Shown here one piece after another: positions 1 through 52,685 of a stretch of 64,000 nt of DNA. Position numbers and translations under genes: made by a program. The notes under the pieces were generated by a model, which saw only the letters and a program-made list of their open reading frames with translations, made no database searches and was not told where the DNA came from. Position 1 is the stretch's first letter. Each line of letters begins with the position of its first letter. The DNA is from Escherichia virus TH38. Location: sequence record MT446410.1; one strand, given 5' to 3'.

Positions 1-172
1 CCTAAGCCCCAAAATATTTAAAGTATATATTATATGGTATATTCATATGAATAGGGTGACACTGGCGCCATTATTGTGCAACCAAAAAAGACTACTCTGA
101 AAACGAGGAAAAGATTTTTTCCTGCCTGAATTAGATACGGAGTTAGCGATATGAAAACCGAACAACGTCATG
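1..172. repeat. Direct repeat copy A (171 bp, one indel near the end versus copy B); plasmid divergent-promoter region
   Basis: 1-166 identical to 3174-3339, then tcatg shared after a 1-nt indel; offset 3173 bp. Confidence 0.9.
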
Positions 173-321
173 ATCTTGTTAAAGATATTGAGGTTTTTGG
201 CGTATCCTTGTCTCTGTTGATTTCCAGAGCGAATGAGAAGTCTGTTACAATGCCATCTGGTCTAAGTCGGGAGCAGAGAAGAGCATGGGCAGCGGAGCAG
301 GCGCGCAAAATCCACAATTGA
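151..321 (+). CDS. Small ORF (56 aa) overlapping the start of the next ORF; possible antitoxin-like partner
   Basis: ATG at 151 with GGAG 8 nt upstream; 37-nt overlap with the 285-713 ORF in another frame; not in ORF track (<60 aa). Confidence 0.25.
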   Translation: MKTEQRHDLVKDIEVFGVSLSLLISRANEKSVTMPSGLSREQRRAWAAEQARKIHN

Positions 322-713
322 ATATTGTCTCATTCTCTGAGACCTTCAACCTTTATTACACATCCAGATATTCTGCAAAAACACTCGATAAAATCGATGA
401 TTTCATTGAGCATTTTGAAAAATACAATCTCTTTGGCGATCCTTTAAAAGGATATCCAGCTTGGACTGGCAAAGTATCGCCATCGTGGAAAGTGCCTGAT
501 CATTACGAAAACAAAGAAGCTATTGAGAAGTATGCTAGAGCTAACAAATTATGGCATGCTCATTTAGGCGATCCGGTTTTTAAAGATACGTTTCATGGGA
601 AATACAAGGTTTCTGACTGGGTTATTCATTTCCAGCGGCTGACACCGAACCATATAAAGCTTTTAGAGCTTGGATACCATGACCCAATGAAGCTACCTCA
701 AAACTTTGAATGA
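285..713 (+). CDS. Hypothetical protein, possibly a toxin-like (YafO-type?) plasmid protein; true start may be internal
   Basis: 142-aa ORF with a WHAHLGDP motif; operon-like overlap with the upstream small ORF; family assignment is a weak recollection. Confidence 0.3.
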   Translation: MGSGAGAQNPQLNIVSFSETFNLYYTSRYSAKTLDKIDDFIEHFEKYNLFGDPLKGYPAWTGKVSPSWKVPDHYENKEAIEKYARANKLWHAHLGDPVFKDTFHGKYKVSDWVIHFQRLTPNHIKLLELGYHDPMKLPQNFE

Positions 714-737
714 TCGAGCGGCAGGCTAAATGAAATC

Positions 738-766
738 TTGAGATTCATTCAGTCTCGTCGTAATCT
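738..766 (+). promoter_or_regulatory. RNA II (replication primer) promoter, -35 TTGAGA / 17 bp / -10 TAATCT
   Basis: Same architecture and near-identical sequence to the pMB1/ColE1 RNA II promoter. Confidence 0.6.
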
Positions 767-774
767 CACTATTG

Positions 775-1330
775 TAAAAACGAAAAAACCACCCTGGCAG
801 GTGGTTTTTCGAAGGTTAGTTAATCCTGGCAGATTCTCTAACCGTGGTAACAGTCTTGTGCGAGACATGTCACCAAATACTGTCCTTTCAGTGTAGCCTC
901 AGTTAGGCCGCCACTTCAAGAACTCTCGTTACATCTCTCGCACATCCTGCTTACCAGTGGCCGTTGCCAGTGGCGTTAAGTCGTGTCTTACCGGGTTGGA
1001 CTCAAGACGATAGTTACCGGATAAGGCGCAGCGGTCGGGCTGAACGGGGGGTTCGTGCACACAGCCCAGCTTGGAGCGAACGACCTACACCGAACCGAGA
1101 TACCAACAGCGTGAGCTATGAGAAAGCGCCACGCTTCCCGAAGGGAGAAAGGCGGACAGGTATCCGGTAAGCGGCAGGGTCGGAACAGGAGAGCGCACGA
1201 GGGAGCTTCCAGGGGGAAACGCCTGGTATCTTTATAGTCCTGTCGGGTTTCGCCACCTCTGACTTGAGCGTCGATTTTTGTGATGCTCGTCAGGGGGGCG
1301 GAGCCTATGGAAAAACGCCTCCCGCGCGCC
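775..1330 (+). ncRNA. RNA II pre-primer of ColE1-type origin; RNA-DNA switch expected near 1320-1330
   Basis: Long near-identical stretch to the pMB1/ColE1 ori (e.g. ccagtggcg...taagtcgtgtcttaccgggttggactcaagacgatagttaccggataaggcgcagcggtcgggctgaacggggggttcgtgcacacagcccagcttggagcgaacgacctacaccgaac). Confidence 0.8.
779..886 (-). ncRNA. RNA I antisense copy-number control RNA (approximate ends)
   Basis: Antisense to the RNA II 5' end; hairpin aaaaaaccaccctggcaggtggttttt corresponds to the RNA I terminator; loop sequences differ from pMB1. Confidence 0.6.
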
Positions 1331-1547
1331 CTTCTTCTGGGTCTTTGTCTTTTGCTCACATGTTCTTTCCGGTTTTATCCCCCGATTCTGTGGATAACCG
1401 TATTACCGCCTTTGAGTGAGCTGACACCGCTCGCCGCAGTCGAACGACCGAGCGTAGCGAGTCAGTGAGCGAGGAAGCGGAAGAGCGCCTTATGTGACAT
1501 TTTCTCCTTACGCTCCTCTATGCCGTTCTGCATCCTGTCCGGATGCG

Positions 1548-1742
1548 TTATATCCCGGTAAGATTTTCCGCTTCAAAGCGTGTCTGTATGCTGTTCTGGA
1601 GTTCTTCTGCGAGTTCGTGCAGTTTCTCACACATGGCGGCCTGTTCGTCGGCATTGAGTGCGTCCAGTTTTTCGAGCAGCGTCAGGCTCTGACTTTTTAT
1701 GAATCCCGCCATGTTGAGTACGGCTTGCTGCTGCTTATTCAT
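1548..1742 (-). CDS. rop: Rop/Rom RNA I-RNA II modulator protein
   Basis: 64 aa, MNKQQQAVLNMAGFIKSQSLTLLEKLDALNADEQ... closely matches ColE1 Rop; convergent with RNA II as in pBR322. Confidence 0.9.
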   Translation of the reverse strand: MNKQQQAVLNMAGFIKSQSLTLLEKLDALNADEQAAMCEKLHELAEELQNSIQTRFEAENLTGI

Positions 1743-2001
1743 CTTTTCGTTTTCTCCGTTCTGTCTGTCATCTGCGTTGTGTGATTATATCGCGTACCAC
1801 TTTTCGACTGTTTTGCTGCCGCTATTCTGCCGCTTGGCTTTTTGACGGGCATTTCTGTCAGACAACACTGTCACTGCCAAAAAACTGCCGTGCCTTTGTC
1901 GGTAATTCGAGCTTGCTGACAGGACAGGATGTGCAATTGTTATACCGCGCATACATGCACGCTATTACAATTGCCCTGGTCAGGGCTTTGCCCCGACACC
2001 C

Positions 2002-2349
2002 ATGTCAGATACGGAGCCATGTTTTATGACAAAACGAAGTGGAAGTAATACGCGCAGGCGGGCTATCAGTCGCCCTGTTCGTCTGACGGCAGAAGAAGAC
2101 CAGGAAATCAGAAAAAGGGCTGCTGAATGCGGCAAGACCGTTTCCGGTTTTTTACGGGCGGCAGCTCTCGGTAAGAAAGTTAACTCACTGACTGATGATC
2201 GGGTACTGAAAGAAGTTATGAGACTGGGGGCGTTACAGAAAAAACTCTTTATCGACGGCAAGCGTGTCGGGGACAGGGAGTATGCGGAGGTGCTGATCGC
2301 TATTACGGAGTATCACCGTGCCCTGTTATCCAGGCTTATGGCAGATTAG
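2002..2349 (+). CDS. MobC-like ribbon-helix-helix mobilization accessory protein (no relaxase gene seen)
   Basis: 115 aa; RLTAEEDQEIRKRAAECGKTVSGFLRAAALG resembles the MobC family motif. Confidence 0.45.
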   Translation: MSDTEPCFMTKRSGSNTRRRAISRPVRLTAEEDQEIRKRAAECGKTVSGFLRAAALGKKVNSLTDDRVLKEVMRLGALQKKLFIDGKRVGDREYAEVLIAITEYHRALLSRLMAD

Positions 2350-2569
2350 CTTCCCGGAGAGAAAACTGTCGAAAACTGACGGTATGAACACCGTAAGCTC
2401 CCAAAGTGATCACCATTCGCTTTCATGCATAGCTATGCAGCGAGCTGAAAACGATCCTGACGCATCCTTCCTGTTTTTCCGGGGTAAAACATCTCTTTTT
2501 GCGGTGTCTGCGTCAGAATCGCGTTCAGCGCGTTTCAGTGGTGCGTACAATTAAGGGATTATGGTAAAT
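2350..2569. promoter_or_regulatory. cer-like multimer resolution site; XerC/XerD core at 2540-2569
   Basis: Exact ColE1 cer core GGTGCGTACAA-TTAAGGGA-TTATGGTAAAT at 2540-2569; accessory region assumed upstream. Confidence 0.8.
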
Positions 2570-2737
2570 ATATGAGCTATGCGATAACTTTAACTGTGAA
2601 GCGATGAACCCATTACAGGCAAAGCCAATTACTCCTGACAGTGGTTTAGCCAGAAGCAGGGCTACCAAGACCAATGCAATAAGTAATATATCGTTTTGCT
2701 ATCGTGCATCGCTCGCGCTCAGTTCCATTGTGCTTTT

Positions 2738-3166
2738 TTAAGCTGTCGTTTTTCTTACGGTATATACCGGTTTTTTATGGCGTGGTTTCTTAACTTGTTC
2801 AGCTACTGATGGACCCATTGTATCTAGGTAGTCAACTAGCTTTGTTAGATCATAAATATTGCGACCACCATATCGGCGATCACTCTTCGATGTTGGTTTC
2901 TTGTCCAAGAGATTAGCTTTTTCAAGATCATTGATAGCTCTCTGAACAGTCCGTACAGAAACCCCCATACGTATGGCTAGACTTTCCATTGACGGATGCG
3001 GCCACTCTTGCAAACTCCACCAGTGAACGATCAGGTTAAGTAGTGTGTTAAAGGCCACTGAAGTTAGCTTTTTCTCGTTTTGTATAAAAAACAATACGGT
3101 AGGCACTGCTGTCCAGCCAAGAGACAAACCGCCAGCTTTCCATTTATTCTTAACGGAGTAAGTCAT
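2738..3166 (-). CDS. Winged-helix/HTH DNA-binding protein (plasmid-borne, function unknown)
   Basis: 142 aa; LAIRMGVSVRTVQRAINDLEKANLL HTH; start 8 bp from the repeat. Confidence 0.45.
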   Translation of the reverse strand: MTYSVKNKWKAGGLSLGWTAVPTVLFFIQNEKKLTSVAFNTLLNLIVHWWSLQEWPHPSMESLAIRMGVSVRTVQRAINDLEKANLLDKKPTSKSDRRYGGRNIYDLTKLVDYLDTMGPSVAEQVKKPRHKKPVYTVRKTTA

Positions 3167-3173
3167 TGATTTT

Positions 3174-3344
3174 CCTAAGCCCCAAAATATTTAAAGTATA
3201 TATTATATGGTATATTCATATGAATAGGGTGACACTGGCGCCATTATTGTGCAACCAAAAAAGACTACTCTGAAAACGAGGAAAAGATTTTTTCCTGCCT
3301 GAATTAGATACGGAGTTAGCGATATGAAAACCGAACAACTCATG
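3174..3344. repeat. Direct repeat copy B; plasmid/phage junction at about 3340-3345
   Basis: Identity with 1-172 ends at 3344, after which sequence is phage-like. Confidence 0.9.
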
Positions 3345-12650: not shown

Positions 12651-12679
12651 TGTTGTTGATAATGTAGAAGGAGTATAAA

Positions 12680-20122: not shown

Positions 20123-20149
20123 GTTTTAAGACCTATACAAGCCAGTGTG

Positions 20150-36023: not shown

Positions 36024-37673
36024 ATGCAACAGACAACTTACGCTCAGGTCAGAAGTCGTGACCCGAGAAATACTTTCTATGGTGTTAATCCGGGAGCGGC
36101 TTCGGCCTCTCCTTATATGGCTAGACCAACTCAGACAGCAGATATTTCTATGTATCAACGTCCTGCTATACCTGCTGGGCTTTCCTCTCTTGTAGGTCAA
36201 ACTTCAGTAGATTATCAGAATATGTTGAATCCTGTTCAGAGTAATGGTCTTCCTTCTGATATCCCAAATGATGTACAACCTCAAGCACAACAGGATGTAA
36301 CTCTTCCTGAGTTTGAGAATCAAGAAACCATGCAAGCTGCTGGACTTTCTCCTTCTTCTATTCCTCCAGAATCAGAACCTCTTCCGGTAACACCTCCTAC
36401 TAAACCGTTAGAAGCTGGTCCTATGGAGTTTACTCCTTCTCAGGTTGAACAGGCACAAGGTGTGATTAATACTCTTGCTCAAGGACAAGACGCTGGTGAT
36501 GGAATGACTGCTGCTACTCGTGCTAAAGATCAGGAACGTGTTAACAACGATATCTTGCAAGTTGCGAAAGCTAAAGACCCTTCGGAAGCTTGGAACAAAC
36601 TACAGAAAGAACCATTCTATCAGAACTCTAGTTTCTACACAGGTTTGATGGGTGTAGGTCTTTCCATTATGTCAGGTAAGTCTCCTATTGAAGCTTTCCA
36701 GATTGGTCAGGGAATGGCTAATCAAGATGAGACTAAGAAGCAACTTGAAGCTAACCGTGATGCTCTGATTGAACAAGGCTTCTCTCAAGACTCGATCGCA
36801 GCTGCTATTGCTAACGGAGACCCATCTCTACTGAAGATGAGAGCTGTAGACCCTGCTCAGAAAGAAGCACTGTATGCTGCTCGTGAAGAACGACAAAATG
36901 CTGAATGGGATAGACGTCAACAGATTCAAGAGCAAACTATGCGTGAGCGTGCTGATGAAACTCGTCGTGCCGCTGAAGAAAGGGCTAACATGAACTTTGA
37001 ACGTCAGAAAGAGTTGATTGGTTATCGTGATAAGGTTAAGGCTGAACGTGCTGAGCAAGCTGCTCAGAGTTTTAACTTTAACCCGAAAGAAGTTCGTCTT
37101 GCTCAGAACACAGCTGAAGGTACGGTTGCTAAGCAGTGGGCAGAGAAAGGTGGCCTGTTTAACCAGTCTAACAAAGACTTGGATTTGGCTGATAAGGCTG
37201 TTAAGGATAAAGACTATCAGACAGCTCGTTCTGCTTACATGCAGGCTATCATGAACTCCGCAAGGGCTGAAATCGGTGCTACTCGTTCTCTTACCGAAGA
37301 AGACTTAGGGCACTTTGCAGAAGACCCATCAATCTTCGTTCGTGTTGGCAACAAGTTTGCACTGAAATCTGGATGGCGTCCTACTGACTCTGCTCTTGCT
37401 TATGCTCGTAAGCAAGCTAACGTTGGTCACACCTCTGCAATGAAAGGTGTTGCTGATGCTAAGAGAGCTACGATTGAAGCTTACATCGGTTCTGGTATGG
37501 ATAAGAAGAGAGCTACTGCATTGGTTAACCGTGCAATCCCTTCTGGTGGTTTCTATGACCCTCTAGGTGTTTTCTCTGAACAAGCAGAAGAAGCAGTTGG
37601 TGGTGCAGCAACCAATCCTAAGCTTAATGGTGCTTTATCAGCTGTCGAAGACACTAGCTGGTTTACTCAATAA
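36024..37673 (+). CDS. Internal virion protein (549 aa)
   Basis: ORF with RBS. Confidence 0.45.
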   Translation: MQQTTYAQVRSRDPRNTFYGVNPGAASASPYMARPTQTADISMYQRPAIPAGLSSLVGQTSVDYQNMLNPVQSNGLPSDIPNDVQPQAQQDVTLPEFENQETMQAAGLSPSSIPPESEPLPVTPPTKPLEAGPMEFTPSQVEQAQGVINTLAQGQDAGDGMTAATRAKDQERVNNDILQVAKAKDPSEAWNKLQKEPFYQNSSFYTGLMGVGLSIMSGKSPIEAFQIGQGMANQDETKKQLEANRDALIEQGFSQDSIAAAIANGDPSLLKMRAVDPAQKEALYAAREERQNAEWDRRQQIQEQTMRERADETRRAAEERANMNFERQKELIGYRDKVKAERAEQAAQSFNFNPKEVRLAQNTAEGTVAKQWAEKGGLFNQSNKDLDLADKAVKDKDYQTARSAYMQAIMNSARAEIGATRSLTEEDLGHFAEDPSIFVRVGNKFALKSGWRPTDSALAYARKQANVGHTSAMKGVADAKRATIEAYIGSGMDKKRATALVNRAIPSGGFYDPLGVFSEQAEEAVGGAATNPKLNGALSAVEDTSWFTQ

Positions 37674-37680
37674 GACCTAA

Positions 37681-44745: not shown

Positions 44746-46231
<1,486 letters not shown>

Positions 46232-46492: not shown

Positions 46493-46727
46493 AATGCATC
46501 TCTTTATAAACGGTTTCCGTGTTCTTCTTCCAGTTAGATATACCGGTAAGAACCCTCTGAGCAACTTCATCAGCTGCCCTACTTCTTTCAATCTCTAACT
46601 CTTGCTGGTGCTTCTCTTTGTCCAGATTACTGCTATCTGTTCTGTACTCATTAAACTTCATACCACCAAAGAATACAAGAGCTGAGAAGATAACAAATCC
46701 TAGATTATCACTTAAAGTGCTTTGCAT
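46377..46727 (-). CDS. N-terminal TM + coiled-coil protein (i-spanin-like candidate)
   Basis: Start adjusted to ATG with GGAG RBS; TM FVIFSALVFFGG then a charged helical region. Confidence 0.35.
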   Translation of the reverse strand: MQSTLSDNLGFVIFSALVFFGGMKFNEYRTDSSNLDKEKHQQELEIERSRAADEVAQRVLTGISNWKKNTETVYKEMHYEKTKPVFYNVCASDEYVSLFNERQQQAINALTNKPKS

Positions 46728-46740
46728 ATTGACTCCAACG

Positions 46741-46763
46741 AAAAAAGCCACCCGGAGGTGGCT
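46741..46763 (-). terminator. Rho-independent terminator (minus strand)
   Basis: agccacctccgggtggct plus T6 on the minus strand. Confidence 0.6.
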
Positions 46764-46784
46764 AAGCTATAACAAGGAGAGTTA

Positions 46785-47531
46785 TTAGAATGGGCTATCG
46801 TTGTCGTCTTCGTAAGTAGAAGCAGGCTCTTTATCAATCGTAGGGATTGAAGGAGTAGCTTCTTTCTGCTCTGTTTCAGAAGCACGAGTAATTTCACGAC
46901 CAGCCAGAGGCATGTTCTTAGCGTCATTAGCTTGAGTAAGCAGGTTGCGCTGGAACGGGAACATCAGTTGATAGGATGCTACGTTCTCATCGGTTTCAGC
47001 ATACGGTTCGAAGAATACCAGAGGACTACGAGCTTCACCAACTGCTGCACGATATTTGGTTGGGATTGGAGAAATGGTCTTGATGGAGTTTTTAACTTCA
47101 CCAGCTTTGTTAGTGTAAGAGTTAACCAGAATGTTAACAGGCTGACCTAACAGAACATCCTTGAACCAAGACAGATCACCTTTCAGTGCTTGAATACTTG
47201 GGTCAATCATCTTGCAAAGATCAAGAATACCAGAGTTCTTAGCTCGTGGGTTTACATCATAGCTCTTGAACTGGCAAGCCGGACGTGGTTCTAATGCCTT
47301 ACCATCGGAATCTTTACCAGTAGCATCAACACCAATCAGCTCGAAAGCTAAATCCATACGGAAAGCCGGATTCTTAGGAGTTACTGCTTTGGTCTTCGGG
47401 TCAATCCAAGGGTCACGATTGTGAACACCCAAACCTACCACACGAACGATACGTGCTTCGTATTCACCATCAGGGATTACATCGTAGTTGGATTTACGGG
47501 AAGCAGTTGCGATAGTTGGAATCATAGACAT
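46785..47531 (-). CDS. Putative single-stranded DNA-binding protein
   Basis: Acidic C-terminal tail ending YEDDNDSPF, as in SSB C-termini. Confidence 0.45.
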   Translation of the reverse strand: MSMIPTIATASRKSNYDVIPDGEYEARIVRVVGLGVHNRDPWIDPKTKAVTPKNPAFRMDLAFELIGVDATGKDSDGKALEPRPACQFKSYDVNPRAKNSGILDLCKMIDPSIQALKGDLSWFKDVLLGQPVNILVNSYTNKAGEVKNSIKTISPIPTKYRAAVGEARSPLVFFEPYAETDENVASYQLMFPFQRNLLTQANDAKNMPLAGREITRASETEQKEATPSIPTIDKEPASTYEDDNDSPF

Positions 47532-47590
47532 ATTTTAATTTCCTTATTTAATTTGAAAGATTGTTGCTCTCTTTGAGCGGTTATGTATAG

Positions 47591-47599
47591 TATACATTA
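47591..47599 (-). promoter_or_regulatory. TAATGTATA motif (minus strand) upstream of the SSB-like gene
   Basis: Within palindrome tatgtatagtatacatta, 60 nt upstream of the 47531 start. Confidence 0.4.
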
Positions 47600-47662
47600 C
47601 GCTTATACCGATAAGAGTACTATATAATATAAGTATCTTTGGTAGTAGATATAACACACTAG

Positions 47663-47671
47663 TAATGTATA
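47663..47671 (+). promoter_or_regulatory. TAATGTATA motif on the plus strand in the same intergenic region
   Basis: Seen directly; no annotated plus-strand target. Confidence 0.3.
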
Positions 47672-48077
47672 TATTGTATAGCTGATAAAGTTATTGCAGG
47701 CTTGTATATTGGGCAATTCACAGAATCCCTTGCAAGTACCGAAGGGCAGGAGCCACCTGCGAGATAAAAATAGAGAATTAAGGAATCCTTGATTTAGGTT
47801 GTAGGGACTCCTAGGGACTTTGATTCTCTATTTAAAAGAATATTAATTACTTATTACCTAAATAATTAACTAACTTACTTAAACCAAATTCAAGAATAAT
47901 AGATAAAAAGATTATTCCTAAGAAAGCTAAAAAGTAAAGGATATAAGTTACCATTCTAGTAAACCTTTAAAGTTAGTTTGTTCTACTATCCTCTGATAAC
48001 GAAGATTAGAATCAGCTTGTTTCTTTAACATCTCATTATATTGATCTCTGATAGAGTCTTTATGTACTACAGGTTCT

Positions 48078-48581
48078 TTAAATAATGAGATCTTGTTCTT
48101 TTCTTCTTTCATCAAAGACCTTCCTAATCTCTTGCAGAGAAACAGCTTTATAGTTAATTTGCTCCATTGATGTACAGAAATATCTCCAATCATCAATTAC
48201 ATGGTTATGAGTATGAGCATAAATATTAAACTTCCCTCTCATTTCATCAGTGTGAATAGGAATATGAGTTACCCAAAACTCTTTATATTTATAATCACCA
48301 GAGATTCTACGGAAGACTTTCATCATATCAGGGAGAAGTTCTAACCTGTCATGGTTCCCTAAGACTAGATGCTTCTCTCCTTTTACTTCAGCGATGATAT
48401 CAAGGGCATACTTTTCAAACACCCAATCACCGGTAAAGAAGATTTTGTCTCGCTTAGTTACATGATCAAATGCAGCTAGAATTGCTTTGTCATGTTCTTC
48501 GATGGTTTTAAATTGCTTACGAAAACTACAGATGTTGCGATGACCTAAGTGACCATCTCCTGCAAAATAAACTTCAGCCAT
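48078..48581 (-). CDS. Calcineurin-like metallophosphoesterase
   Basis: GDGHLGH, GDWVF and GNHD motifs. Confidence 0.6.
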   Translation of the reverse strand: MAEVYFAGDGHLGHRNICSFRKQFKTIEEHDKAILAAFDHVTKRDKIFFTGDWVFEKYALDIIAEVKGEKHLVLGNHDRLELLPDMMKVFRRISGDYKYKEFWVTHIPIHTDEMRGKFNIYAHTHNHVIDDWRYFCTSMEQINYKAVSLQEIRKVFDERRKEQDLII

Positions 48582-48590
48582 AAAGACCTC

Positions 48591-48806
48591 TTAGATAGTA
48601 CACCCATCACAAGTTAAGTCACCTAGCAGGGACAGGGAAAGTAATCTGGATTGCTCATCGCTGTATAGTTGATCAATCTCTTCTTTAAGTTTTGCCAACT
48701 CCATAAAGTTAATGAGCTGACCATGTTCGAGGCAGTCTGTTTTTAGTACGAACAAAACTTCAGCGTTGGTTGAGTCTTCGCTTGAGTATTTATCGATATA
48801 TTCCAT
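48591..48806 (-). CDS. Hypothetical protein (71 aa)
   Basis: ORF. Confidence 0.35.
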   Translation of the reverse strand: MEYIDKYSSEDSTNAEVLFVLKTDCLEHGQLINFMELAKLKEEIDQLYSDEQSRLLSLSLLGDLTCDGCTI

Positions 48807-48962
48807 TTTACACTCCCTATCATTATGACCAAGATTTAGCTTTTACTTCAACATATGTTTTAACTTCACCTTTCAATACTTCCTGAGAGGCATTTGCACT
48901 TTCTTCAGAGTGATGTACAACGGTGATCTCTTTCTTTCCAATCTTATAAGTGTGAATCCAAA

Positions 48963-49163
48963 TCATACCTCTTCCTCATATTCCCAATTTCTTTCATAAT
49001 ACCCAGAGTTGTAGTTTAGGGCGCACTTCTCGGCCTCTTCTATGTCGTCAGTGTTTAGGATATTTACCCATCCTCCAACTTCATCAAAACCTTCTTCTAC
49101 TTCGTTAAACCATACACTATACTTTTTCATCGAGAAGTTCTTCCCCAATCTTTTACATAGCAT
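48963..49163 (-). CDS. Hypothetical protein (66 aa)
   Basis: ORF. Confidence 0.35.
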   Translation of the reverse strand: MLCKRLGKNFSMKKYSVWFNEVEEGFDEVGGWVNILNTDDIEEAEKCALNYNSGYYERNWEYEEEV

Positions 49164-50840: not shown

Positions 50841-52685
50841 TTAGTGTGTATGCATCCAGTTAAGTCCAATCTGACAATCAGATGCCAGAGGACATTCCAT
50901 GTTCAGATACTCGCCAGCTTTCTTAACACAAAGCTCAGTGTGCTCTTTGAGTTTCTGTACATCATTACGGTTTACTGAGAATTGACCTTCATCGTGCATA
51001 TCAATTACCTTAGCACAACGAACCTTATCTTTCTCAATCCACTTGTTAAGGAACATCATAGCATATTTCATAACAACAGCACCAGCACATTGCAGGAGTG
51101 TGTTAAGGGCTTTATGAACCATAACCTTACCAGTGGCATCCCGTCTCATTGTAATCTTACGACCATCAACTCCAATCAAGTATCCTTGAGCAGCTTTCTC
51201 TGTCATACGATCAATGAGGATTGCAATACATGGGTTCTCTGCTAAGAAACGTGCTCGCATCACTGAACCTTCGTCAGCCCCACCACCTACAATTGAACCA
51301 AGCTTAGCATCGCCAGCACCGTAGTTGAATGCATAGATAAATGTCTTAGCGTTGTCACGAGTAGGAAGACCAGCAAGTTTCTGGTTGTGGGAGTGGATAT
51401 CACCTTCAAGGAGAATATCACGATACATAATAGCAGAAGCTAAACCACGTTCTGCCAGAGCTTTCTTAGCTGGGTTGTTCTCTTCAATTGCTTCAGCAAG
51501 CATATCCCTACACTCTTTAATGAGGTAGTGAGCGAGCATACGAAGTTCCAGTCCAGAACCATCATACCCTAAGAATACTTCTTTACCAGCGGGTATGTAA
51601 TATTTGTAAGCGCCTACAGGTTTGTCTTTCTTCCCCGGCTTACCTTTCTCGTAAATTACGTTAGTACCTTTTCGTATATAACAACCATCAGGAACAACGT
51701 TAGTAATAACGAAAGGACGAGAGTGATCACTGTCTGAGTTATAGTCAGACTCAAACAAACTGCGACACTCGTGACCAAACAGACCACGGGAGGGAATATT
51801 AACCACGATACGATGTTTGAATCGAAAAGTCGGCGTAGCGCAGCTGTTAGCTTCTGCCGAAAGTTTACCATCTTCGCGTTCCTTTGCTATGAGTCCACTG
51901 ATAAGACCTAGCCTGTGAGCCGCCACAACGCGTCTCTTAAGCAAACTTCCGACACTCCCTAGCTCACCCCCTAACCCTTCTTCAAGAGTCTCCTCGAGGT
52001 TTGTAGGAGCTGTAGGCCACTTGTTTGATGTGGCTAGTGCTTTCTTAATCTCATCAAACGTTACAGGATTACGGCGATTAGGGTTTAATCCCAAACCAAA
52101 TACGTAAGCCTTCATATAATTCTTAGTTTTAAACCTGAAATGCTTTTCTAAGAACTTCTTAATATCAGCGTCAACCATCTCGGCTGTCTGCTTCTGCTTA
52201 GCATTGCCTCGCATCCAAGCAGTATACCATGCTTGGTATGTTCCATACTTTCTCATATCTTTCTTAATTTCGAAAGTATTCCAAGGCTTCTTAGATACGT
52301 TAAACTCTGGAGGAAGAAAGCCCTCATCCATAAGAGCTTCTTTAACTCGTGCATCTTTCGATGGGTCAAAGTCTACGTATTCGACACAGGTGAAAGCTCC
52401 ACCAATATCTTCTCTCTTCAGCCCAACCCTATCACAATAGGATTGAGGCCACTTCTGTAAAGCTCCAGACTTCTTAAATGGCTTCATATAAGTAGAGCCA
52501 TCTAATCTCATCTTAGGTAAGAGAGGAATCAGTTCTTTGTCAATATTAACAATAATCTCTTTAAGGAGGTGAACATACCACCGAGCATTTCTTCGGTTGA
52601 AACTCACTCCGTGCTTCGCTTGCTTAGAGATTATATCAGCGACAGTCATCTCTGTCAAAAATGGGAGAGCGTCCGGGTTGCTCAC
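50841..52685 (-). CDS. DNA polymerase, family A polymerase domain only
   Basis: Motif A GYDGSGLELRMLAH, motif B KTFIYAFNYGAG, motif C MHDEGQ; no exonuclease motifs. Confidence 0.7.
   Translation of the reverse strand: MSNPDALPFLTEMTVADIISKQAKHGVSFNRRNARWYVHLLKEIIVNIDKELIPLLPKMRLDGSTYMKPFKKSGALQKWPQSYCDRVGLKREDIGGAFTCVEYVDFDPSKDARVKEALMDEGFLPPEFNVSKKPWNTFEIKKDMRKYGTYQAWYTAWMRGNAKQKQTAEMVDADIKKFLEKHFRFKTKNYMKAYVFGLGLNPNRRNPVTFDEIKKALATSNKWPTAPTNLEETLEEGLGGELGSVGSLLKRRVVAAHRLGLISGLIAKEREDGKLSAEANSCATPTFRFKHRIVVNIPSRGLFGHECRSLFESDYNSDSDHSRPFVITNVVPDGCYIRKGTNVIYEKGKPGKKDKPVGAYKYYIPAGKEVFLGYDGSGLELRMLAHYLIKECRDMLAEAIEENNPAKKALAERGLASAIMYRDILLEGDIHSHNQKLAGLPTRDNAKTFIYAFNYGAGDAKLGSIVGGGADEGSVMRARFLAENPCIAILIDRMTEKAAQGYLIGVDGRKITMRRDATGKVMVHKALNTLLQCAGAVVMKYAMMFLNKWIEKDKVRCAKVIDMHDEGQFSVNRNDVQKLKEHTELCVKKAGEYLNMECPLASDCQIGLNWMHTH

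Follow-up and report, generated by a model that had tools for sequence, protein, structure and literature searches.

A candidate orphan gp36 promoter and a predicted structured non-coding RNA back to back with the middle promoter P40 of a Kuravirus

Why should a short gap in a gene cluster that points one way throughout carry the same promoter motif on both strands, if a gene to serve is found on only one of them? This question is raised by a stretch of 64,000 nucleotides (nt) from Escherichia virus TH38 (record MT446410.1; the window in what follows), a Kuravirus, i.e. a phiEco32-like coliphage, whose region 46700-48700 shows 98-99% identity to vB_EcoP_DE5, SU10 and phiEco32 and whose flanking genes correspond one for one to phiEco32 genes 32-48. 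All genes beyond ~42.5 kb lie on the minus strand, the late genes lying on the plus strand, and the gap in question separates gene 41 from gene 40 within the minus-strand part, which also encodes the phage sigma factor gp36 (45125-45772, minus strand). An earlier inspection of the letters alone (the sequence-only reading) had let the gap extend from 47532 to 47947; the true non-coding gap is 47532-47846, the remainder belonging to the coding sequence of gp41. We consider it probable that this gap holds two back-to-back gp36 promoters, namely the known promoter P40 of gene 40 and a new orphan promoter of the P68 class, here termed P(+), from which a structured non-coding RNA of ~160 nt would be transcribed.

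According to the published work, tAATGTAtA is the experimentally defined element for Escherichia coli RNA polymerase carrying gp36, transcription starting 6-8 nt downstream of it, and six gp36 promoters have been mapped in phiEco32, i.e. P6, P13, P26, P40, P58 and P68 (Pavlova et al. 2012, J Mol Biol 416:389, as cited in PMC8948821 and PMC4331800). Six gp36 promoters were also tabulated for five relatives and for SU10, and work up to 2025 still cites six as the phiEco32 transcription map. We find five exact copies of TAATGTATA in the 64 kb compared to 0.65 expected, a number reached by none of 100 shuffles, and no enrichment if one mismatch is allowed (24 versus 19). The counterparts of all six mapped promoters are found at the expected places in the window (Table 1), making the plus-strand site of the gap the seventh gp36-type site. 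Two exact copies fall into the gap, one on the minus strand (47591-47599), as had been noticed from the letters, and one on the plus strand (47663-47671) with 63 nt between them, so that the distance of 65 bp given earlier was roughly right. Using the numbering of the structural work on P68, in which +1 lies seven nt after the motif, starts are predicted at 12675, 20165, 37709, 47584, 47678, 54084 and 58666, and all seven positions are purines (five A, two G). The predicted starts of the two gap promoters, 47584 and 47678, are 94 bp apart.

The evidence that the plus-strand copy belongs to a promoter comes from its likeness to P68. The cryo-electron microscopy (cryo-EM) structure of the P68 open complex with gp79/gp36, together with mutagenesis (Nucleic Acids Research (NAR) 2025, PMC12276001), places AATGTA at -14 to -9 and shows -37G contacted by R187 and -34A by Y186, both in the C-terminal domain of gp36; mutating either these gp36 residues or the bases -37G/-34A abolishes transcription from P68. 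In P(+), TTGGTA occupies -39 to -34 and TAATGTATA occupies -15 to -7, and both -37G and -34A are present, in register and within the same TTGGTA as in P68. The arrangement TTGGTAGTAGATAT-N10-(T/A)AATGTATA is common to both promoters with identical spacing, and the 12-mer TGGTAGTAGATA occurs only twice in the 64-kb window, once in P(+) and once 11 nt upstream of the P68 motif. An exact 12-mer and a 9-mer shared at the same spacing are therefore not a product of chance. The -35 contacts of P68 are thus found at the new plus-strand site, P40, P58 and the late promoters being without them: P40 shows ATAGTA instead of TTGGTA at -39 to -34, in which -34A is present and -37 is A. Judging from these sequences, gp36 promoters may fall into classes according to their -35 region. 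The late promoters P13 and P26 have a 9-mer of their own in common, TAAGACCTA at -38 to -30 in the same register (20127-20135 and 37671-37679, plus strand), which is unlike the TTGGTAGTAGATA of P68 and P(+) and is itself not enriched in the window.

The conservation of the site was followed in 30 related loci from three genera, Kuravirus, Suseptimavirus and Nieuwekanaalvirus, metagenomic contigs included. Both gap promoters are present in 30/30 loci. The -35 element of P(+) is kept with at most two substitutions in every one of them, and the sole exception at the -10-type element is a metagenomic contig with TAATATATA. The 11-nt spacer and the flanks of P(+) diverge across the three genera and the metagenomic contigs while both elements stay. 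The P68 block behaves alike in four divergent phages, in which it is identical except for one spacer substitution in two of them. The myPSH1131 group (L013 at ~545-760; also L022 and L025-L029) carries an insert of ~150 nt between P40 and P(+), and the two promoters are therefore separable units; the insert encodes a small basic minus-strand open reading frame (ORF) of ~48 amino acids (aa), its start codon overlapping a TGGTAGTA element. In the window, changing the TAATGTATA of P(+) to TAATCTATA would leave P40 untouched.

The two promoters differ in what follows them. P40 lies upstream of gene 40 on the same strand and P(+) is followed by no conserved plus-strand ORF, in agreement with the earlier statement that the plus-strand copy has no gene to serve. 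The plus-strand ORFs of the gap are all 21-32 aa long, begin with TTG and have their frames broken by 1-nt indels in relatives, and on both strands together only ORFs of 20-37 aa are found, without ATG starts and interrupted in relatives in the same way. Because small indels break every ORF and ATG-initiated ORFs are missing, a coding function of the gap was rejected. A single GenBank record annotates a minus-strand ORF of 64 aa (195 nt) in the gap, the other records being without it. We think that the plus-strand site is a genuine, hitherto undescribed gp36 promoter; judged by every sequence criterion, P(+) joins the gp36 promoter family as a new member, with P68 as its closest relative. Its activity and exact start, as well as the 3' end and the stability of its RNA, we infer from the sequence.

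In the model that we favor, both promoters would be used by host RNA polymerase carrying gp36, P40 from 47584 transcribing gene 40 and the genes downstream of it and P(+) presumably firing in the middle phase from A47678. The predicted product of P(+) is a non-coding RNA of ~160 nt reaching from 47678 to ~47836, which would consist of a 5'-terminal hairpin (H1), an exchangeable central domain and an almost invariant 3' core, whose long hairpin would double as a terminator on the minus strand (Table 1). A hairpin at the very 5' terminus typically shields an RNA from 5'-end-dependent decay. H1 shows compensatory changes, pair 2-18 being UA or GC and pair 5-15 being CG, AU or UA, and in addition pair 4-16 is GC or GU, a combination that pairs on the plus strand only. 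With 5-6 base pairs, two of them double-changed, the covariation score of H1 exceeds those of all 500 shuffles and of all slid controls.

The central domain occurs in two versions. Type A is found in the window and in most relatives, and its stems never vary among type A loci. Type B, present in 12 records of the same subfamily, is an unrelated sequence of 66 nt with its own predicted hairpins, one of which shows a compensatory UA to CG pair. MN05 and SR02 have the 5' hairpin in common and the central domain not, and ECBP2 and Bas88 have the flanks in common and again the central domain not; the type of the central domain is independent of the rest of the locus and was therefore exchanged by recombination. 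The 3' core on the other side is 90-96/96 nt (94-100%) identical in six relatives, compared to 409-491/500 nt (82-98%) for the 5' 500 nt of gene 40 in the same phages, and its substitutions and indels sit at predicted unpaired positions. Over the whole RNA, in the structure predicted on the plus strand, variation tends to spare the pairs: outside H1, variable columns make up 3/83 paired and 13/56 unpaired columns in type A (Fisher p = 6.5e-4), the numbers for type B being 5/101 and 12/64 (p = 7e-3), and all indels of 1-3 nt sit in predicted loops or bulges. The fold energy is -45.8 kcal/mol on the plus strand (z -2.4 to -2.6) versus -35.3 kcal/mol on the minus strand (z -1.2), again for a structure predicted on the plus strand. 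The plus-strand GC skew of the RNA region is +0.19 as opposed to -0.10 to -0.19 in the surrounding minus-strand genes, and its GC content is 40% versus ~27% in the spacer on its left. The loop region of the long hairpin holds two copies of TAGGGACT, 10 nt apart at 47802 and 47812 (47802-47819, plus strand). One clade has both in the shorter form (G)AGGACT, spaced by 9 nt.

Table 1. Features of the gap between genes 41 and 40 and gp36-type promoters of the window (positions in the 64,000-nt window)
Feature	Position	Strand	Remark
Gene 40	46785-47531	-	bounds the gap on the left
Gene 40 5' untranslated leader	47532-47584	-	begins at A47584, the predicted P40 start, and runs up to the ATG
Near-palindrome GTTATGTATA-G-TATACATTAC	47580-47600		overlaps P40 and its start site
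P40, -10-type element TAATGTATA	47591-47599	-	exact match; conserved in all relatives aligned
P(+), -35-region element TTGGTAGTAGATAT	47639-47652	+	-37G is 47641, -34A is 47644
P(+), -10-type element TAATGTATA	47663-47671	+	exact match; intact in 29/30 loci
Predicted +1 (A47678) and 5' hairpin H1 (ATAGCT-GATAA-AGTTAT)	47678-47694	+	first hairpin base is the predicted +1
Central domain, type A	47695-47740	+	closed by TTGCAGG (47694-47701) pairing with CCTGCGA (47756-47762), predicted fold
Conserved 3' core	47741-47836	+	small hairpin, A-rich linker and 66-nt hairpin
Small hairpin GCAGG-AGCCA-CCTGC	47746-47760	+	within the 3' core
Long 66-nt hairpin	47768-47833	+	holds TAGGGACT twice
Long hairpin read on the minus strand	47766-47833	-	followed by UUUUUAUCUC (complement of 47761-47770)
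Gene 41 (gp41, phi32_41)	47847-47954	-	35-aa hydrophobic peptide MVTYILYFLAFLGIIFLSIILEFGLSKLVNYLGNK; bounds the gap on the right
P6	12660	+	found at the expected place
P13	20150	+	found at the expected place
P26	37694	+	found at the expected place
P40	47591	-	found at the expected place
P58	54091	-	found at the expected place
P68	58673	-	found at the expected place

As to the role of the predicted RNA, we would guess first at a regulatory RNA that acts in trans or binds a protein. With its central domain circulating in two versions and its core invariant, it could combine a specificity module with a scaffold. A more far-reaching possibility, to which we give little weight, is that it represents a phage RNA of a new class, regulatory or counter-defence, in which the 3' core binds a host or phage protein and the central domain sets the target; the target could then be a host defence factor, an RNA-binding factor or a competing phage. 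Similarity searches assign the RNA to no family: Rfam 15 at gathering threshold gives no family in the region, and at permissive E-values the best hit scores 16 bits against thresholds of 39-50, which is chance level, the type B locus giving the same result. A scan for tRNA and transfer-messenger RNA (tmRNA) found none in the window, a search of 5,426 complete E. coli genomes gave no match to the RNA region, and there is no second copy of the RNA in the window, in which the only related sequence is the promoter likeness to P68. The small hairpin resembles E. coli repeats of the clustered regularly interspaced short palindromic repeat (CRISPR) type when compared by eye; the likeness is one of general shape only, the loop varying between AGCCA and AGACA, and was dismissed.

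Several observations weigh against a discrete regulatory RNA transcribed from P(+). Covariation is limited to H1 and the one type B pair, the other 42 type A pairs being invariant, and the structure having been predicted on the plus strand biases both the comparison of the strands and the test of where variation falls. Beyond the long hairpin the plus strand reads only UUU, in one clade UU, a run that is not conserved, and the terminator scan of 46500-49000 found no plus-strand site; a plus-strand transcript may run on, antisense to genes 41-43. The near-invariance of the 3' core equally fits a site acting at the DNA level, and a minus-strand terminator is an adequate alternative explanation of the long hairpin. 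No trans target stands out within the window, complementary 10-12-mers being at chance (8 eleven-mers versus 6.3 in shuffles). The accessible promoter lists, which name six promoters, do not contain P(+), although Pavlova 2012 may mention it, and the literature search found no Kuravirus transcriptome and no transcript of the plus strand for any relative. The study in PMC12803456 includes two Kuravirus isolates, RSB02 and RSB04, among its phages; the reads of its infection RNA sequencing (BioProject PRJNA1225266, sampled 10 min after infection) were aligned to the host genome only.

Three other explanations were weighed against these data. That P(+) is active and acts through transcription itself, or through a long antisense transcript against genes 41-43 and beyond, seems to us rather unlikely. 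Polymerase collision or RNA pairing would in this case silence genes 41-43 in the middle phase of infection or yield substrates for RNase III, and the conserved hairpins would be a minus-strand terminator or a processing site between genes 41 and 40. The missing plus-strand terminator behind the long hairpin agrees with this, and short phage antisense RNAs, for example lambda oop, do work in such a way. Read on the minus strand, the long hairpin has stems of 11 and 8 bp, is significantly stable (-18.2 kcal/mol, z -2.9) and is followed by a T5 run, i.e. U5 in the RNA, which is invariant in all relatives, the plus-strand T run being 2-3 nt long and variable. In Bas88 a substitution in column 112 breaks a plus-strand pair; read on the minus strand, it would give a G-U wobble. 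The minus-strand hairpin was not called by the consensus terminator scan, because its stem is AT-rich and its loop long; from the predicted fold it is probably the intrinsic terminator that closes the gene 41 transcription unit before P40 is reached, and with a terminator after gene 41, transcription of gene 40 would depend on its own promoter. Yet a terminator needs neither an almost invariant 38-nt loop nor an upstream multi-hairpin domain in two structured versions, H1 starts exactly at the predicted +1, its GC/GU and compensatory changes fit a plus-strand RNA only, and genes 41 and 42 are missing or replaced in several relatives where the plus-strand promoter and the RNA stay intact. The antisense-RNA promoter of the sequence-only reading holds up in substance, in that the plus-strand copy matches the P68 contacts and is followed by conserved structured non-coding sequence, and not in the form in which it was proposed. 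We regard it as very improbable that the plus-strand motif has no function and arose by chance or as a relic, for example from a partial duplication of P68, its conservation then reflecting only low divergence. Most relatives are >95% identical overall, and the site is missing from the promoter surveys in their accessible parts; but both promoter elements are fixed while the spacer and flanks between and around them diverge, the 12-mer and 9-mer match a validated promoter at its own spacing, and the core downstream is more conserved than the adjoining coding DNA.

A replication origin had been considered from the letters as well; one built like those of T7 or T4 we hold to be improbable. In such a site the transcript of the orphan promoter would form an R-loop or a primer for the phage DNA polymerase, and the two TAGGGACT repeats, 10 bp apart, could bind a putative initiator protein. 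This would agree with an orphan middle-class promoter among replication-associated genes (the DNA polymerase gene is at 50841-52685), with a G-rich transcript (GC skew +0.19), with two 8-mers one helical turn apart and with a 3' core conserved as DNA above the neighbouring coding sequence, and the searchable literature describes no origin for phages of the Kuravirus group. However, P(+) is followed by no conserved AT-rich unwinding element; the part of the gap that comes next is its most structured one and the poorest in AT. The flanking AT-rich DNA is variable, and beyond 47836 it is the coding sequence of gp41, which is missing in some relatives. The change of the repeat spacing from 10 to 9 nt in one clade comes about by deletions in predicted RNA loops, fitting an RNA fold better than phased protein sites, and TAGGGACT occurs nowhere else in the window, two copies being the chance number. 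The extremes of the cumulative GC skew are found elsewhere, near 10.5 kb and 42 kb, where the gene direction changes, the skew giving no signal at the gap, and an origin leaves the compensatory 5' hairpin and the exchangeable structured domain unexplained.

The minus-strand copy of the motif is the published middle promoter P40 and hence already known: P40 is listed in phiEco32 with equivalents in NJ01, ECBP2, KBNP1711, SU10 and 172-1, and the middle-promoter table of SU10 prints the identical sequence aagcgtaatgtatactatacataaccgctc, palindrome included. The leader of gene 40 carries the Shine-Dalgarno sequence AAGGAA (complement of 47540-47545) and is 46-51/51 nt identical in six divergent relatives. 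The palindrome that had drawn attention to the gap, tatgtatagtatacatta, is present at 47582-47599; it is not perfect and amounts to two arms of 10 nt (47580-47600) that match in 9/10 positions around G47590, with ATGTATA-G-TATACAT as the perfect part. Palindromes of equal quality occur nine times in the window compared to ~10 in first-order Markov random sequences. Because this frequency is what chance predicts, the palindrome is notable only for overlapping a promoter, and it was rejected as a special feature. The Suseptimavirus clade has TGTATA-CTA-TATACA in its place and keeps only the TGTATA/TATACA symmetry. Its plus-strand half TTATGTATA (47581-47589) was considered as a second promoter and rejected, having T at -14, a base contacted by gp36, and being lost in the Suseptimavirus clade. 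The palindrome would then simply be P40 plus its initially transcribed TATACAT. The bidirectional promoter of the sequence-only reading is therefore best described as two promoters standing back to back and not as one palindromic unit, the palindrome belonging to P40 only.

Of the flanking genes, gene 41 encodes a member of PHROG 24970 (E 2.7e-24), annotated as phi32_41 and homologues, and is missing or replaced in LAMP, Paul, XT18, Bas88 and ECBP2. Gene 40 had been called SSB-like (single-stranded DNA-binding protein); this label stems from one GenBank annotation and was not upheld, gp40 giving no match to Pfam or to Protein Data Bank (PDB) sequences and its PHROG family being of unknown function. 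In several relatives, among them SU10, WFI101126 and Ptacy1532, gene 40 is followed closely by an inserted gene for an HNH homing endonuclease (in WFI101126 at L001 3087-3500), which the window does not have at the equivalent position ~46770. Collection scans with the RNA core returned only known or near-identical contigs of the Kuravirus group, five viral and six metagenomic. A scan based on gp40 added three more distant IMG/VR contigs (L040-L042, 82-90 kb) with 67-70% aa identity in gp40, and neither the plus-strand promoter nor the RNA was found in these three. Their gap upstream of gene 40 is shorter and shows TAATGGATA instead of TAATGTATA as well as a common GCTAGCAAAGCTAGC-type repeat. 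Positions 1-3344 of the window are not phage DNA: they are 100% identical to pMUT1, a cryptic ColE1-type plasmid of E. coli Nissle 1917, which is present in full (3173 bp) with a circular overlap of 166 nt (1-166 equal to 3174-3339) and RNAI at 780-881. Since the plasmid sequence is joined directly to Kuravirus DNA, the assembly behind the source record is probably chimeric or concatenated, and Nissle 1917 may have been the strain on which the phage was grown.

The phage phiEco32 is the reference system for a phage re-programming host RNA polymerase with a sigma factor of its own, gp36, and a co-factor, gp79. Its map has been taken as six gp36 promoters, all serving protein genes, and the point of interest is precisely that P(+) does not serve a downstream gene. 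If our interpretation is correct, a conserved seventh promoter directed against the gene flow and its non-coding RNA would be a missing element of the six-promoter map, and the RNA would be the first candidate regulatory RNA for Kuravirus and its relatives, which are poorly studied and yet used therapeutically. The division of gp36 promoters into classes could become clear from a comparison of P68 and P(+) with P40, P58 and the late promoters. If transcription from P(+) is absent, the region is the known P40 plus a terminator and thus ordinary.

Among known systems, oop of phage lambda is similar in layout to the candidate RNA, both being small non-coding RNAs whose promoter opposes the neighbouring operon and for which an antisense regulator or a replication primer is the obvious reading; oop was at one time suspected to be such a primer. 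Lambda oop is 77 nt long and ends at a strong terminator. The host sigma-70 enzyme transcribes it from an orphan promoter next to the origin, and it overlaps the cII coding sequence at the 3' end of the latter. The candidate RNA, by contrast, would be ~160 nt long with several domains, depends on a phage sigma factor in our model, has no clear terminator and no sequence similarity to oop, and, provided that its 3' end is the long hairpin, it is free of overlap with coding sequence. Origins consisting of a promoter and an unwinding element are known from T7 (phi1.1A/B) and T4 (oriF, oriG), which resemble P(+) in having a phage-specific promoter without a gene to serve among replication-associated genes; their AT-rich unwinding element, however, is not conserved at P(+), where structured and comparatively GC-rich sequence lies downstream instead. 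The minus-strand motif does not differ from P40 of phiEco32, having the same sequence in the same place upstream of the gene 40 homologue. P(+) finds its closest counterpart in P68, with the same TTGGTAGTAGATAT (-39 to -26) separated by 10 nt from (T/A)AATGTATA in either case, -37G and -34A at the same positions, a purine at the predicted +1 and conservation of both promoters across Kuravirus, Suseptimavirus and Nieuwekanaalvirus, the base at -15 being T in P(+), i.e. the full consensus, and A in P68. Downstream of P68, which shares the strand of its neighbours, come a ribosome-binding site 40 nt on and then gene 68, whereas P(+) opposes the whole middle and early gene cluster and leads into structured non-coding sequence.

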